IMG/VR virus record: IMGVR_UViG_2698536476_000008
DNA from: a virus
Lineage: Duplodnaviria; Heunggongvirae; Uroviricota; Caudoviricetes
Length of the DNA stretch: 64,000 nucleotides
Strand: one strand, 5' to 3'
Part shown: positions 11,421 to 62,221 of the stretch, piece after piece
Numbering within the stretch: position 1 is the stretch's first letter
Layout of the letters: every line of letters begins with the position of its first letter
Translations under genes and position numbers: made by a program
Notes under the pieces: model-generated
What the model saw: the letters and a program-made list of their open reading frames with translations, nothing else
The model's database searches: none
What the model was told of the DNA's origin: nothing

Positions 11421-11589
11421 GTATTTTTAAGTCACGAATGCTATCTTTTCACATCATATTGACCTTTTAATCGTTCAGGCTTATAGTTCCGCCGTCGTAG
11501 CAAATTCTGCGACCGGGTTTAGCAGCCTGAATACTTACGCGGACAACCGCAGATTTCCGATATTGCGGTATTTTTGTGTCCGTAAACCA

Positions 11590-11670
11590 CGTTACGCCCG
11601 AATTATGGTGGGGCGTGATGGGGAGGCTTCGGCCTGCTGGTTTCGTAAGTGCCAGTCTGCTAACCCCGTC
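11590..11670 (+). ncRNA. Candidate c4-like immunity RNA (coordinates approximate)
   Basis: Block TATGGTGGGGCGTGATGGGGAGGCTTCGGCCTGCTGG conserved with 62083-62125, with compensatory changes around a TTCG-loop hairpin; sits between operator and icd as in P1 immI. Confidence 0.35.
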
Positions 11671-11732
11671 ACGTCCTGCCACCTGTTTAGCAGCGGGTCG
11701 CAGGTTGTTTATCAACTTACGAGGCCGTAACT

Positions 11733-15130: not shown

Positions 15131-15253
15131 TACAATCGTTGCGGGTGCTTGAGGCTATCTGCTTCAGGCATTACCCGAAAAGCAGATAGAAGAAAGCCCC
15201 AGATAACATCACGCGTCCTGCAAGACGCTTAACATTAATCTGAGGCCATATCT

Positions 15254-15460
15254 ATGCTTAGCATACGTAGATTAGCCTCTTACCGACCAAAAGGTCAAGG
15301 AGAAGTAGGCTATGAAGCAGCAAAAAGCGATGTTAATCGCTCTGATCGTCATCTGTTTAACCGTCATTGTGACGGCACTGGTAACGAGGAAAGACCTCTG
15401 CGAGGTACGAATCCGAACCGGCCAGACGGAGGTCACTGTCTTCACAGCCTACGAATCTGA
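15254..15460 (+). CDS. mok-like overlapping reading frame upstream of and overlapping hok
   Basis: 68-aa ORF in a different frame overlapping the hok-like gene, as in hok/mok/sok loci. Confidence 0.35.
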   Translation: MLSIRRLASYRPKGQGEVGYEAAKSDVNRSDRHLFNRHCDGTGNEERPLRGTNPNRPDGGHCLHSLRI

Positions 15461-29298: not shown

Positions 29299-31313
29299 AA
29301 GAGCTGTGCTATGGATCTGTTTGCAGTGGAATTGAAGCCGCGAGTATTGCCTGGGAACCGTTGGGTATGCGTCCGGCGTGGTTTGCTGAAATCGAGCCTT
29401 TTCCATCTGCCGTTCTTGCGCACCGCTGGCCCCATGTCGCCAACCTTGGCGACATGACAAAACTTGCCAAAAAAGTCCTGGCTGGGGAAATCGAATCCCC
29501 TGATGTGCTCGTCGGGGGTACGCCTTGTCAGGCATTCAGTATCGCGGGCTTACGTGGTGGGCTTGATGATGAACGCGGCGCGCTAACTTTGAAGTATGTG
29601 GAGCTTGCAAATGCAATTGACGACAAACGGTCTGAGTCCTTCCTCAAACCGACAGTTATCGTCTGGGAAAATGTCCCAGGAGTCCTGTCATCGGCAGATA
29701 ACGCCTTCGGATGTTTCCTTGCCGGATTGGCTGGAGAAGATGCGCCATTTGAACCAGGTGATCGACCTGAATCAGGAAAAAGTAACGCGTTCTGGCGGTG
29801 GGATGGCAAAACCGGTTGCCATGCTCCAAAGTGGCCGCAGTGTGGTTGTATTTATGGACCGCAGCGAAAGGTGGCCTGGAGAATCCTTGATGCCCAATAC
29901 TTCGGAGTGGCACAACGACGCCGACGCGTGTTTGTTGTCGCAAGTGCTCGAACAGACCTCGATCCCGCAACGGTACTTTTTGAGTTCGAAGGCGTGCGCC
30001 GGAATATTGCGCCGAGCAGAGGCGAGGGGAAGGAAACTACCAGATATACTTCAAACATCGCTATCAGATCTTGCGATGATACAAACATAGTTGCCATGGC
30101 ACATGGGCAAGGAGGGGCTGAGATAAAAACCGATAATTCGGCACCAACTTTGACATGTAACCATGAAGCACCAATTGTATTGCTCGTCGACGGTAGAATG
30201 CGCCGTCTTATCCCTGTCGAATGTGAAAGGCTGCAAGGTTTTCCTGATGGACATACATTGATCCCTACGGAAAAGCGTAAAAAAGTTTCTTCAGATGAAC
30301 TGGCATACCTTCGCAAAAACTATCCTGATTTGAGCGAAGAAGAGGCCGCGATGCTTGCAGCTGACGGACCGCGTTACAAAGCGATCGGCAATAGTATGGC
30401 GATACCAGTAATGCGCTGGATTGGCGATCGGATTGCCAAGGCTGCATGTCGGCAGAAGGAAGGGAGTGAAACAAAAGAGCGAAAAGTTAAACCAGCGGCA
30501 GAATTCGAACGGTCCATATTCAAATGGGCTGGTGGAAAATTTGGTGTTCTGGAACAAATCTTTCGCTATTTGCCAGAAGGGAAGCGCCTGATTGAGCCTT
30601 TCGTTGGTGGCGGAGCTGTCTTCATGAATGCCGGATACCAGGAAAATCTGCTAAATGATGTGAATGCTGACCTGATTAACTTTTACAAGACTCTGCAACG
30701 CGAGGCGCATTCACTTATCACTCTGGCACATCGTTTCTTCCAGGACTACAACACGCAGGAAGGATACCTGGCAGTACGGAATGCGTTTAACAAACAAGTC
30801 TATGATGATTTACATCGCGCAGCGGCGTTTTTGTTCCTGAACCGACATTGTTTTAACGGATTGACGCGTTACAACCAAGCCGGTGAGTTCAATGTCGGTT
30901 ATGGGAAGTATAAAACTCCGTATTTCCCATTGCAGGAGATGGAAGCCTTCCTTGGTGCGGAAGGGCGTTCTGAGTTTGTATGTGGTGATTTTGCTGCGGT
31001 GATTGAAGCTGCCGGAGAAGGAGATGTCATCTTTTGTGATCCGCCGTATGAACCGCTCCCAAATACAGAGGGATTCACGAACTATTCCGGTCATGACTTT
31101 AAGTTTGAAGAGCAAAAACGCCTGGCGTCTCTGTTGACGGATGCTCATCGCCGAGGTGCAAAGGTTCTCATTACTAACAGTGGCGCGCCAAACATCAGAG
31201 AACTTTATCAGGACAGTGGCTTCAGAGTGGAACCTCTTTTTGCCAGACGTTCTGTGTCTTGTAAGGGGGACACTCGAGGTGTTGCTCATGACGTTATAGC
31301 AATATTGCTCTAA
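29295..31313 (+). CDS. dmt: Bifunctional DNA methyltransferase (C5-cytosine domain fused to Dam-like N6-adenine domain)
   Basis: GTG start overlapping hrdC stop; [12 protein letters not shown] and ENVPG (C5-MTase) in N-half; FKWAGGK and DPPY (N6-adenine MTase) in C-half. Confidence 0.85.
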
Positions 31314-31331
31314 TAAATTTATTAGTGTAAT
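31304..31331. promoter_or_regulatory. Bipartite (inverted, overlapping) C1-operator-like site
   Basis: ATTGCTCTAATAAATTT followed by inverted half AAATTTATTAGTGTAAT; overlaps dmt stop. Confidence 0.65.
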
Positions 31332-31497
31332 ATCGCATCAATGAATCGTGATTTATAGAGCGATTTAGCTGTTAGCCGCGACAGGCGCGGCGGCAAGTAT
31401 GGCGGGGTAGTGACTCCTTCCCCCTCATGACGCCGAGTTGCCAGGTTGACCATACGCCTAAGTGGCAACACCGAAGTGCGTTACGAGCTTCCAGTTT
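31321..31497 (+). ncRNA. Candidate small RNA between operator and terminator (speculative)
   Basis: About 175-nt non-coding segment bounded by C1-operator-like site and a terminator; contains TATGGCGGGG resembling the c4-like block. Confidence 0.25.
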
Positions 31498-31523
31498 GCC
31501 CATCTTCGGGTGGGCGTTTTTTT
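31498..31523 (+). terminator. Rho-independent terminator
   Basis: GCCCA-TCTTCGGG-TGGGC followed by T7. Confidence 0.6.
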
Positions 31524-31704
31524 CAGGGTTTTCGTCATGGTTAGCGACTTTGCGGCGGTTTAGAAACTGACCATTAAAGTAAATGCAAACGATGATCTGA
31601 TGATGGTAGCGGCATAAGAAGCCAGACGCCACGGGGTATGAGTCGTCCCCCGTCAAAAAATCGACCGCAGAGTGTCCCCGTCTGTGTATTAGGGAACGGG
31701 GAGG

Positions 31705-31785
31705 CACAACAGGTAAGGGCGCTGGTGTGATTAACCAGATGAACGAGAAGGGGCCATCTGTTGGTCAGCGTCCTTTCCTGTTGCG
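31705..31785 (+). repeat. Long-stem hairpin element E
   Basis: Arms CACAACAGGTAAGGGCGCTG / CAGCGTCCTTTCCTGTTGCG with about 41-nt loop, followed by TCTTCTTTTC. Confidence 0.55.
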
Positions 31786-31988
31786 TCTTCTTTTCAGCGT
31801 AACAGCGGTGCTTAACAGCACTTTGGGTACAGTTCCACGAATTTACGGGTATATCCCGTCATGCTGAAAGCGCTAATCACGCTGGAAGCCAGGGTTATGC
31901 ATCCCCTGTTACCGAATTGCAGCCAGGGCGCGGTGCGCCGAAAAGCATACGGAGGTGGAAGCCCTCGCCGGAGACGTACCCGGCAAGT

Positions 31989-32064
31989 GATGGTGTAGCT
32001 CAGCGGTTAGAGCGGTTGACTGTTAATCAACGGGTCGATGGTTCAAATCCATCCACCATCGCCA
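31989..32064 (+). tRNA. tRNA-Asn (anticodon GTT)
   Basis: Cloverleaf by eye: acceptor GATGGTG/CACCATC, anticodon loop CTGTTAA, T-arm GGTTCAAATCC, encoded CCA. Confidence 0.9.
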
Positions 32065-32066
32065 AT

Positions 32067-32142
32067 GCCGGTTTAGCTCAGTTGGTAGAGCGCCTGCCTT
32101 GTAAGCAGGATGTCAGCGGTTCGATTCCGTTAATCGGCACCA
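32067..32142 (+). tRNA. tRNA-Thr (anticodon TGT)
   Basis: Acceptor GCCGGTT/AATCGGC, anticodon loop CTTGTAA, T-arm GGTTCGATTCC, encoded CCA. Confidence 0.9.
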
Positions 32143-32143
32143 G

Positions 32144-32230
32144 CACAACAGGTAAGGGTATTTTGCGACGTCGGAGATCGCCGAGCTTGGCAGAGGGTTC
32201 GAATCCCTACGAAGTACCCTTACCGTTGTG
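32144..32230 (+). repeat. Long-stem hairpin element A enclosing a T-arm-like motif
   Basis: 16-bp stem CACAAC(A)GGTAAGGGTA / TACCCTTACCGTTGTG enclosing 54 nt that include GGGTTCGAATCCC; starts 2 nt after tRNA-Thr. Confidence 0.55.
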
Positions 32231-32350
32231 ATGAATGCGCAGGCTGATGCGCGAAAGACATTGCAGCTATTGCGGAAAAGAGCTGTTCGGCGGGGCAATT
32301 AAACGCCCGTGAGAGTCTGAAATAACCGCAAGCCGGAGATCAGCACCGGT

Positions 32351-32429
32351 CATCACAACACAACAGGTAAGGGCATTCTCCCTTATGGGGCTTGGCTTAA
32401 ATGCATCGAGTGCTCTTACCGTTGTGATG
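32351..32429 (+). repeat. Long-stem hairpin element B
   Basis: Arms CATCACAACACAACAGGTAAGGGC / GCTCTTACCGTTGTGATG. Confidence 0.55.
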
Positions 32430-32567
32430 AAGTGCAGCTCTTTGAAGCAACCAGAAGATAAGCATCTGGCTTCACAACATAAACCGCAGGAACGACCAAT
32501 AAACGGTAGTCCGTATGGAGAACACCCCGTTGAGGAAGAGGCCTGGCCGGAACCGTAACCGGCACTA

Positions 32568-32657
32568 CAACGTTGAGAACACTGGCGTAACGGGGTCATA
32601 TCCCAATCTACGAATAAATGTTGCGTTGCAGCGTGACAACCAGTGTTCTCAACATTG
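32568..32657 (+). repeat. Long-stem hairpin element C
   Basis: Perfect 14-bp stem GTTGAGAACACTGG / CCAGTGTTCTCAAC enclosing about 54 nt with GGGGTCATATCCC; tail ATTGTGGTGAATGCACAGGCTGATG. Confidence 0.55.
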
Positions 32658-32840
32658 TGGTGAATGCACAGGCTGATGTGCCGCAACTACAGTAGTGCGC
32701 GCTTTGCGGGGCTTGCTACAACCCTGTGTCGGAGTTCAGCACCGACCATCACAGTTTGATTCTCTGGCATGAGCATAACGCTGAAATAAGTCCAGCCTGG
32801 TGCGGCCCGATCACCCGCCGTTAGCTCCACGAAACGGAGC

Positions 32841-32923
32841 ACGTAACAGGTAAGAGCATTCTCCTGTAACGGGTTCATATCCCAATCTACAGGTCCACCA
32901 AGAATGCTCTTTCCGTTGCGGTG
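32841..32923 (+). repeat. Long-stem hairpin element D
   Basis: Arms ACGTAACAGGTAAGAGCATTCT / AGAATGCTCTTTCCGTTGCGGTG enclosing GGGTTCATATCCC. Confidence 0.55.
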
Positions 32924-33070
32924 AATGCGGCTAAGCGCACGCGGGGAAATGGTTATATCAGTCCATTCATTTCTCCTTGTTTCCCCGTCCACGGTGGATA
33001 ACCAGCCAAAGGACACCGGGAGGCACCCGGCACCGCAGCTTTTTTATTCGTTAAATAATGGAGTGAGAGG

Positions 33071-33307
33071 ATGCAGAACAATTCGAACAAATGTCGAACG
33101 CTATGGGTGCGGTTATATATTTATGCCGTCCTCTGTTTGATTGTGTCACTGGTTCTGTATGTTTGGCTTTTGCCAAATATGATCTCATCTAACAGCACAA
33201 TACTTGTATTGTTGGGAGTCCTTCTCGCGCTCATTTACCCGGCTTTCGCAGTAGTCTTTTTTCGTGAAAAAACCAGGAAATTAATTAATGAAAAAAACGT
33301 TGATTAG
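33071..33307 (+). CDS. Small two-TM membrane protein (78 aa)
   Basis: Hydrophobic segments; overlaps start of SPFH gene. Confidence 0.5.
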   Translation: MQNNSNKCRTLWVRLYIYAVLCLIVSLVLYVWLLPNMISSNSTILVLLGVLLALIYPAFAVVFFREKTRKLINEKNVD

Positions 33308-34142: not shown

Positions 34143-34218
34143 GGCCCTTTAGCTCAGTGGTTAGAGCTGGCGACTCATAATCGCACGGTCACCGGTTCAA
34201 GTCCGGTAGGGGCCACCA
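34143..34218 (+). tRNA. tRNA-Ile2 type (anticodon CAT, lysidine-type by resemblance to E. coli ileX)
   Basis: GGCCCTTTAGCTCAGTGGTTAGAGC...CTCATAA...GGTTCAAGTCC...GGGGCCACCA. Confidence 0.85.
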
Positions 34219-61903: not shown

Positions 61904-62069
61904 TGTTTTTTAGCTACCGATGTTACATTGAACCTGACCTCTTGCGCCTTGAGGCATTTTCGGTTTATGCTTATCAGGCACCTCATTAAAACGGGTGCCG
62001 GGATTGGCCTCCCGCTTAAGTCTAAGGCGATACAGACGCCGCTCGCGTCTTTTTTTGTATCGGCGTACA

Positions 62070-62150
62070 CGCACACCTCTACAATGGTGGGCTGTATGGG
62101 GCTACCTTCGGGTAGGCTGGTTACCTTGGACGCCAGTAAGGCCAACTCCG
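62070..62150 (+). ncRNA. Candidate c4-like immunity RNA, second copy (coordinates approximate)
   Basis: AATGGTGGGCTGTATGGGGCTACCTTCGGGTAGGCTGG conserved with 11604-11645. Confidence 0.35.
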
Positions 62151-62221
62151 TACAGTCCACCGCCAGCAAGATTGGTCTCTTCTGCGGTGGTTACATACCA
62201 ACGTCTAAGGAGGCTGCCAAT

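Follow-up and report, generated by a model that had tools for sequence, protein, structure and literature searches.

What lies directly downstream of tRNA-Thr in a P1-like phage, where a segment carries a near-canonical T-arm and yet cannot be folded as a transfer RNA (tRNA)? We analyzed this segment, Element A (32144-32230), in the 64,000-nucleotide (nt) stretch of Caudoviricetes DNA recorded as IMGVR_UViG_2698536476_000008 (the window; all coordinates refer to it unless a contig is named). Across 31400-33100 the window is 98.5-99.6% identical by megablast to vB_EcoM-813R1, RCS47, JL22 and P1, identifying it as a P1-like phage-plasmid. Element A is a real, conserved, structured RNA element: it has a stable fold, a covarying stem, close copies in many genomes, relatives in a large hairpin family, a bias towards folding on one strand, and a place inside a transcription unit. 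On balance, and with moderate confidence, we read it as an RNase III punctuation hairpin that would release an anticodon-less tRNA mimic of about 62-70 nt, a processing role that is well motivated but unproven.

tRNA-Thr ends at 32142, and a single unpaired base, G32143, separates it from a stem that spans exactly 32144-32230 (−51.3 kcal/mol; z = −5.1 against dinucleotide shuffles). The stem consists of 6 bp, the bulged A32150 and 15 bp that include three G·U pairs. An earlier note on this DNA, written from the sequence alone, had recognized this enclosing stem but gave it 16 bp, which is too short; it has 21-22 bp. The two smaller hairpins that the same note had described inside the stem are both present. 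The D-arm-like GCGA..TCGC hairpin occupies 32165-32181 and has a 9-nt loop, CGTCGGAGA; the near-canonical T-arm contains GGGTTCGAATCCC (32195-32207) and pairs as AGGG-TTCGAAT-CCCT (32194-32208). In tRNA numbering, G53-C61 closes the T-stem and the loop holds the canonical U54 U55 C56 G57 A58. A G32193·A32209 mismatch lies directly upon the stem pair G32165-C32210. Read from the sequence, the T-stem stacks continuously on the 'acceptor', and the GG of the D-like loop is at the expected place. The sequences of the D-like loop (UCGGA) and the T-loop (UUCGA) are complementary as well, so that a contact of the G18/G19 type would be possible. The linker between the two hairpins stands where the anticodon arm and variable loop would be, with a possible 3-bp GCC/GGY mini-stem proposed by RNAalifold. 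The motif GGTTCRANTCC occurs four times in the 64-kb window, where 0.23 occurrences are expected; the four are the three real tRNAs and Element A, all on the + strand.

That Element A cannot be folded as a tRNA, as the earlier note had concluded by hand, was borne out: only 13 nt lie between the two small hairpins, the stem is a closed 21-22 bp duplex, there is no CCA, and no tRNA is called. Searches of the kind proposed in that note agree. ARAGORN finds tRNAs at 31989, 32067 and 34143 only, and no tRNA or transfer-messenger RNA (tmRNA) at Element A. The Rfam tRNA and tmRNA models have no match at 32144-32230 even at E ≤ 10; the only tmRNA-model matches in the window are weak ones at 31487-31655, far under the gathering scores. 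Part by part, the T-arm has the G53-C61 closing pair and UUCRANN loop of a tRNA (AGGG-UUCGAAU-CCCU). In place of an anticodon arm, with its 5-bp stem and 7-nt loop, there is at most a 2-3 bp mini-stem in 13 nt. A tRNA acceptor has 7 bp, free ends, nucleotides 8/9, a discriminator and CCA; here the D-like hairpin joins the stem without a linker. Element A therefore has no anticodon arm, no nucleotides 8-9 and no free CCA end.

Known tRNA-like RNAs share some of this architecture, although Element A fails the defining tests for tRNA, tmRNA, YrlA and STnc100. The tRNA-like domain of tmRNA, like Element A, sets acceptor-like paired ends on a canonical T-arm, has an analogue of the D-loop and lacks an anticodon arm. 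In tmRNA, however, a long helix, pseudoknots and the tag reading frame replace the anticodon arm, and a free CCA is charged with alanine; Element A has the 13-nt linker, the closed stem of 21-22 bp and no CCA. YrlA (RF02553) likewise joins a long stem to a mimic of T-arm, D-arm and acceptor. Its open ends are on the anticodon side and its acceptor is closed by a loop, whereas the open ends of Element A are on the acceptor side. The YrlA model has no match on Element A, and its weak match of 27 bits (gathering score 69) at 32009-32126 covers the real tRNAs. MALAT1-associated small cytoplasmic RNA (mascRNA) and the mitochondrial 'tRNA punctuation' resemble Element A as tRNA-shaped processing marks directly after a functional RNA. 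RNase P and RNase Z cut those marks, which are complete cloverleaves, whereas Element A has no anticodon arm and is likely to be cut by RNase III on its stem. STnc100/PasD RNAs are transcript neighbors, as modules between the hairpins match STnc100, but Element A has no similarity to them and is not matched by the STnc100 model RF02076. We also considered an integron attC-like site (CAAC...GTTG ends and a bulge) and rejected it: GCACAAC/GTTGTGA miss RYYYAAC/GTTRRRY, and the strand bias described below points to RNA.

Conservation is extensive. By BLAST, Element A is nearly unchanged in 488 PLSDB plasmids and 17 phage records; 464 of 5,426 complete E. coli genomes (~9%) carry it, and 466 of the 475 copies are on plasmids. 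Enterobacter phage BUCT554 has a copy with 85% identity in a non-coding leader close to a promoter. A core-pattern scan of viral contigs yielded ~25 different A-type variants from further prophage contigs of enterobacteria, and the resulting 25-variant alignment covers P1-like and unrelated enterobacterial prophages. The same pattern run over genome contigs retrieved mostly real tRNAs from unrelated organisms and one Escherichia locus, and was uninformative.

The stem covaries strongly in this alignment. Both sides have changed in 13 of the 21 stem pairs, and 91% of stem cells are paired, as against 33-55% when partners are slid by 1-3 columns; none of 500 shuffles reached the observed covariation score. 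The innermost variable pair alone appears as U·G, A-U, G-C and C-G. The long stem and the T-arm are also recovered independently by RNAalifold, and the two small tip hairpins are invariant in all 25 A-type variants. Four variants retrieved by BLAST, independently of the pattern, differ mostly in the linker, the outer 5' arm or the flanks, and they keep the rest of the core unaltered apart from one Salmonella plasmid copy with indels at the linker edges. Two other pairings were tried and dropped: a local CUU/AAG helix around the T-arm fits the P1/BUCT554 pair, but only the long-stem extension holds over the 25 variants, and pairing of the linker with the 3' strand as a minihelix works for contig L009 and BUCT554 only.

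To judge from sequence comparison, the likeness of the tip to tRNA goes beyond a chance T-arm: the core is constant, a second class is compensated, and the likeness recurs across tips. The second class (L204-type, in >15 contigs) follows the same plan: a 4-bp hairpin with GG at positions 5-6 of its 9-nt loop, then 13 nt of linker that end in GCAGA, and finally a T-arm of 4 bp, loop UUCGAUU, abutting the 3' strand. Between the A-type and the L204-type, the D-stem changes from GCGA/UCGC to GCAU/AUGC and the T-stem from AGGG/CCCU to GCGG/CCGC; in the D-like hairpin, two of the four pairs change on both sides. In the joint MAFFT alignment of the two classes, the T-arm was displaced by one column; the counts therefore cover the D-like hairpin and the inner stem, and the T-stem was read directly from the sequences. 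Canonical T-arms occur in 5 of the 38 tip classes listed, whereas shuffled sequences give 0.06 and the opposite strand has none; three of these five classes are interrelated, leaving about three independent lineages. A scan anchored on a T-arm next to the 3' strand added the classes L272, L314 and L352. A tRNA 'top half' thus recurs at the tips of this hairpin family.

A decayed tRNA gene, or a tRNA fragment trapped in a hairpin, could also leave such a tip; the T- and D-like parts would then be functionless relics, and only the stem would matter, if anything. The position of Element A fits this idea, 1-2 nt after a real tRNA and inside a tRNA cluster, and additional real tRNAs occupy the region in relatives (a tRNA-Tyr in L004, a tRNA-Ser-like gene in D6). 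Tips are extremely diverse inside the same stem, and several others hold T-arm pieces, as repeated capture of tRNA fragments would give. A relic should not, however, stay the same in at least 25 stem variants that come from phages of different types and whose stems and linkers have changed, nor keep its three-part plan through compensatory changes in a second class. No residual similarity to the Rfam tRNA model is left, and most copies outside P1-like phages are not beside tRNAs. We regard the relic as an unlikely full account of the tip; as its origin, it is plausible.

Element A is one of five hairpins in the window (E, A, B, C and D, in 5' to 3' order), between which lie tRNAs or modules of ~100-200 nt with pairing ends. 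The earlier note had assigned strings like the T-arm core to the same relative position in C and D. The strings exist, GGGGTCATATCCC in C (32592-32604) and GGGTTCATATCCC in D (32871-32883), within a shared 25-nt motif (family D5), but their position differs: the motif is beside the 5' arm in C and D, whereas the T-arm of A abuts the 3' arm. Nor are GUCAUAU and UUCAUAU, their loops, canonical T-loops: a U occupies the place of the required A58. C and D are stem relatives of A, not T-arm relatives. In phage vB_EcoM-Ro157c2YLVW (L004, ~2953), hairpin D is identical except that the 13-nt GGGTTCATATCCC mini-hairpin is absent.

In viral contigs, the stem pattern ACAGGTAAGRG...CTCTTWCCGTTG occurs at at least 120 loci. 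At least 38 unrelated tip classes of 37-64 nt are held inside the same ~20-nt stem sequence (enterobacterial prophage contigs L167-L269 and the window), so that the shared stem looks like a cassette holder with hypervariable content. Most A-type copies outside P1-like phages follow a terminator or leader sequence rather than a tRNA. The earlier reading missed this context: hairpins of this family are widespread in the early leader transcripts of phages, and homology connects them to an RNase III site that has been mapped. From one hairpin to the next, the 3' arm of the first and the 5' arm of the second are complementary (inverted repeats I3, I9, I10 and I14), and the arms overlap the closing stems of the modules.

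The family favors the transcribed strand. Of 130 distinct hairpins, 121 have the more stable fold on the + strand (mean difference between strands 6.1 kcal/mol), because conserved G·U pairs turn into A/C mismatches on the opposite strand; this argues for a role at the level of RNA rather than DNA. Such a bias would not be needed by a cruciform or a homology block, and it bears on the possibility that the hairpins act mainly as DNA, with the arms serving as short homology blocks for the exchange of phage modules and RNA structure as a by-product. Exchange does leave traces. Chimeric hairpins in viral contigs L008 and L109 have 5' and 3' arms of different type, what reference P1 lacks is exactly the stretch flanked by the repeated 3' arms of A and B, P1-like and lambdoid phages share Module 1 at 98% identity, and one stem holds at least 38 tips. 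Yet double changes keep the stem variants paired, so pairing and not only sequence identity has been selected, and a mapped RNase III site falls in a member of the family. The arms do recombine, which is compatible with an RNA function; a mainly DNA-level role is, in our estimate, slightly less probable than the relic. The L008 and L109 chimeras are A-type hairpins whose 5' and 3' halves come from different stem or inner-pair variants, which indicates recombination inside the tip.

The link between these hairpins and RNase III comes from the E. coli K-12 prophage Qin. There, RNase III makes a 190-nt DicF precursor that is lost in an rnc mutant (Ragunathan et al., bioRxiv 10.1101/2023.04.14.536235, confirming Faubladier et al., 1990), and the RNase III site was mapped by primer extension (bioRxiv 10.1101/2023.04.14.536235). 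About 190 nt 5' of the DicF 3' end we found a hairpin (contig L166, 2173-2259; CCAUAAC-GCGA-AAGCGCAUGG...CCGUGCGCUU-CCG-GUUGUGG) that folds as a long stem and is matched by R1, a covariance model built from A-type hairpins (20.4 bits, E = 8e-4). Judged by the 190-nt size, the precursor begins at ~2246 of L166; judged by the published position 813/814, assumed to be counted from the likely dicBp start at ~1437, it begins at ~2249-2250. Both estimates agree and fall inside the Qin 3' arm (2239-2259).

Element A has both a nearly uninterrupted stem of ~20 bp on the transcribed strand and homology to the Qin hairpin, the features of this dicBF-type family. Like Element A, the Qin hairpin occupies the non-coding part of a repressor-controlled early operon beside DicF- and STnc100-type RNAs, and its long stem of ~20 bp has an interior mismatch. 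The Qin tip differs in having neither a T-arm nor a D-like hairpin; moreover, cleavage has been shown for Qin and is inferred for Element A. Transfer through the model alignment would put the cut near 32219-32223 in Element A; assuming the usual 2-nt stagger, the released tip RNA would then measure ~62-70 nt and keep 8-12 bp of stem. On the downstream side, a full-length STnc100 match in contig L113 starts ~10 nt after an A-type hairpin, which is consistent with RNase III processing. STnc100 and PasD are reported to be prophage small RNAs (sRNAs), PasD having been found by RIL-seq on Hfq (Zhu, Shabalina and Storz, bioRxiv 10.64898/2026.05.13.724894).

Taken as punctuation, the hairpin family would divide a polycistronic non-coding transcript that contains the DicF-like sRNA, tRNA-Asn, tRNA-Thr and STnc100-like sRNAs. 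By homology, host RNase III would most likely cut the stem of Element A on both strands. The cut would open the 3' side of the tRNA-Asn/tRNA-Thr precursor to trimming by exonucleases and would make the 5' end of the downstream STnc100-like module. Because neighboring arms are mutually complementary, the arm left on a module could pair after cleavage with the arm left by the next hairpin and so close the module ends, much as rRNA processing stems do. The tip would be released as an RNA of ~62-70 nt and might form a miniature tRNA 'top half', with the T-arm on the stem, a D-like GG loop able to meet the T-loop, and a linker in place of the anticodon arm. That the released mimic serves as a handle or decoy for a tRNA-recognizing factor is speculative. 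It is a long shot, in our view, that the stem is chiefly a device for presentation and release, in which RNase III hairpins deliver diversified, compact RNA folds (at least 40 tip classes, several of them independent imitations of the tRNA top half) in the earliest transcripts of temperate enterobacterial phages and the A-type tip acts, beside real tRNAs, as an anticodon-less, uncleavable tRNA decoy that titrates a host factor. Candidate targets of such a decoy would be an anticodon-nuclease defence, RNase P or a T-arm-modifying enzyme.

Alternatively, the tip could recruit RNase P, or another enzyme of tRNA end processing, to the 3' end of tRNA-Thr, leaving RNase III a secondary part; parallels would be the separation of tandem tRNAs by RNase P and the way mascRNA sets the MALAT1 3' end. 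What RNase P reads in a tRNA is a canonical T-arm stacked on a helix, and Element A presents this stack 1-2 nt after the CCA of tRNA-Thr. The precursor of P1 C4 RNA is reportedly an RNase P substrate. In some P1-like contigs (L169; cluster 4), another T-arm hairpin follows a sequence resembling a tRNA 3' end, ACCGGCACCA, where no tRNA is called. Compared with a pre-tRNA or C4-type substrate, however, the stack in Element A continues as an uninterrupted 'acceptor' duplex of 21-22 bp without a single-stranded leader. RNase P would be expected to cleave 12 bp from the T-loop, a point inside that duplex, and no RCCA follows the stem. The terminator or leader sequences that precede most A-type copies elsewhere also speak against a function tied to tRNA ends. 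We consider recruitment of RNase P improbable.

Several points weigh against the reading of Element A as a punctuation hairpin with a tRNA-mimic tip. The RNase III step leans on one homologous hairpin, that of Qin, whose cut is placed only to within ~5 nt, from a size and from an assumed numbering that starts at the identified promoter. The RNase III hairpin of the lambda N leader has no R1 match at E ≤ 10, which leaves only an analogy. With at least 38 unrelated tips in the same stem, the tip could be largely unconstrained filler and the stem the sole functional part. Constancy of the tip is partly an effect of ascertainment, since a pattern fixing 21 core bases retrieved part of the A-type set. 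Being invariant, the two tip hairpins give no covariation within that set, and the compensation comes from a single second lineage. Without nucleotides 8-9 between the stem and the D-like hairpin, the tip need not take the true L-shape of a tRNA. Finally, one of the variants retrieved independently of the pattern, on Salmonella plasmid pSa1423-90k, has indels where the linker meets both small hairpins and a disrupted 5' arm, irregularities that could reflect decay or an assembly error.

Where, then, would Element A be transcribed? In the P1 annotation (NC_005856), its region lies between the C1-controlled promoters P1ban and P2ban, with the operator Op72, and ban. The P1 order is a 'dicF-like region', trnA (Asn), trnT (Thr), the minus-strand plp and upl, tciABC, trnI and ban. 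The Pban promoters would drive transcription across the whole hairpin region, and Element A is in the untranslated 2.6-kb leader of the C1-controlled ban operon. Placed between these promoters and ban, the leader with Element A would be transcribed once C1 repression is lifted. A strong terminator closes the DicF-like region, so ban, the tRNAs and all hairpins need read-through. The features of the leader are collected in Table 1.

Table 1. Features of the ban leader in the window, including the parts of Element A.
Feature	Coordinates	Strand	Evidence
Pban promoters and C1 operator Op72 (ATTGCTCTAATAAATTT)	31290-31340 (to ~3 nt)	+	Transferred from NC_005856; operator sequence read directly
DicF-like sRNA region, intrinsic terminator at 31497-31525	31431-31525	+	P1 'dicF-like region' annotation; terminator scan; likeness to Qin DicF precursor
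Hairpin E, same stem family, 5' of the tRNA pair	31702-31788	+	Inverted repeat I2; fold z = −5.1; weak R1 match, 17.4 bits
tRNA-Asn(GTT)	31989-32064	+	ARAGORN; Rfam tRNA, 74.5 bits
tRNA-Thr(TGT)	32067-32142	+	ARAGORN; Rfam tRNA, 73.4 bits
Element A, 5' arm, bulged A at 32150	32144-32165	+	Fold; double-sided changes in 13/21 pairs, 25 variants
Element A, D-arm-like hairpin (G)CGA-CGUCGGAGA-UCG(C)	32165-32181	+	Invariant in 25 variants; GG at loop positions 5-6
Element A, variable linker, 13 nt, CCGAGCUUGGCAG, CC...GG ends	32181-32193	+	Only region of the core that varies
Element A, T-arm, AGGG/CCCU stem, UUCGAAU loop	32194-32209	+	Sequence; invariant in 25 variants; RNAalifold; motif count
Element A, 3' arm; predicted RNase III cut ~32219-32223	32210-32230	+	Alignment to Qin hairpin
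Module 1, STnc100/PasD-like, closed by GTTGTGATGA/TCATCACAAC	32225-32359	+	BLAST matches; inverted repeat I22
Hairpin B, family stem, unrelated tip	32358-32428	+	R1 match, 32.5 bits; fold; tip cluster 0
Hairpin C, 23-bp stem of different sequence, tip motif ACGGGGUCAUAUCCCAAUC	32563-32662	+	Inverted repeat I1; fold z = −5.4
Hairpin D, family stem, tip motif ACGGGUUCAUAUCCCAAUC	32841-32922	+	R1 match, 30 bits; fold; tip cluster 1
STnc100-like module, followed by a T-run (~33040-33046) before the first operon ORF (33071)	32917-33037	+	Rfam RF02076

No credible open reading frame (ORF) covers the Element A region in the ORF listing, the Pfam search or the comparison with P1. The P1 annotation implies otherwise, with a minus-strand protein, Plp, encoded here and any RNA structure incidental. 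Both plp and upl are annotated on the minus strand across the region in P1 and RCS47, and the window has a 139-aa minus-strand ORF at 32267-32686. Neither plp nor upl has a Pfam match, however. Identity between the ORFs of P1 and the window is confined to stretches of identical DNA and breaks off at the module indel, so that neither the C-terminus nor the overlap with Element A is conserved. The plp-like ORF of the window stops short of Element A, which is overlapped only by a 61-aa minus-strand ORF. RefSeq PGAP annotates nothing over Element A in the E. coli records listed, and covariation of the stem fits RNA pairing, not codons. A protein-coding explanation is thus very unlikely, and plp and upl are probably not genes. 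In P1 they run antisense to hairpins A-D (window 32113-33016, minus strand), with ends that shift with the module indel.

Element A is also carried by many other enterobacterial prophages, and its only annotation is this doubtful antisense ORF in P1. Neither Rfam 15 nor the searchable literature, which leaves older P1 papers outside, describes the hairpin family, its variable tips or an anticodon-less tRNA mimic of this kind. A full-text literature search with the sequence strings of Element A returned nothing relevant, and a search of the same literature for P1 ban/tRNA transcript data returned nothing usable; a 2026 PLoS Pathog paper on phage sRNAs proved unrelated. If the punctuation reading is true, the P1 ban leader and the early-left leaders of lambdoid, P22-like and epsilon15-like phages would be polycistronic non-coding RNA arrays with shared punctuation. 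It would explain the DicF processing site, known since 1990, and the 5' ends of the STnc100/PasD-type Hfq sRNAs, and the anticodon-less mimic would join the short list of bacterial tRNA-like RNAs (tmRNA, YrlA). Element A offers a concrete object for asking why phages put tRNA look-alikes beside tRNAs. The results also argue for dropping plp and upl from P1 annotations and for a new RNA family in Rfam.

The modules between the hairpins have histories of their own. Module 1 has a 98% identical counterpart in lambdoid phages; in mEp460, for example, it is located in a non-coding stretch after the repressor gene. Reference P1 (L001, NC_005856) is without Module 1 and hairpin B (window 32235-32430). 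At the P1 deletion the repeated 3' arms of A and B are fused, and both forms are common among P1-like contigs. The module at 32917-33037 scores 37.8 bits against STnc100 (RF02076), under the gathering score of 47, and the terminator scan calls no intrinsic terminator after it, at the T-run. A homologous STnc100-like module stands between dicF and dicB in Qin (L166, 2455-2590). In Qin and in the window alike, the STnc100-like module is closed by GTGATG...CATCAC and immediately precedes the first ORF (dicB in Qin). At the other end of the leader, the initial ~180 nt of the Pban transcript (31345-31525) resemble the 190-nt Qin DicF precursor and differ in the 3' (seed) part.

Further tRNAs accompany the hairpins in relatives. 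Family hairpins, including ones with tRNA-like tips, lie just 3' of four- or five-tRNA arrays in L204 (9292-9858 and 10380-10732), which comes from a 70-kb viral contig, and in L352 (2271-3322). Phage D6 (L005, 2607-2693) has an 87-nt tRNA-Ser(UGA)-like gene between a module and the next hairpin, to which tRNAscan-SE gives no amino acid in the D6 record. In the window, the tRNA(CAT) at 34143-34218 is called tRNA-Met by ARAGORN and Rfam; its P1 homologue is annotated as tRNA-Ile2 and is ileX-like.

Elsewhere in the window, Rfam identifies C4 antisense RNAs, an isrK-like RNA and sok in addition to the three tRNAs. The two C4 loci are at 11481-11686 and 61978-62167; one carries an a1/b1 target element, and the other is preceded by the isrK-like RNA. 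The sok antitoxin RNA is at 15143-15317.

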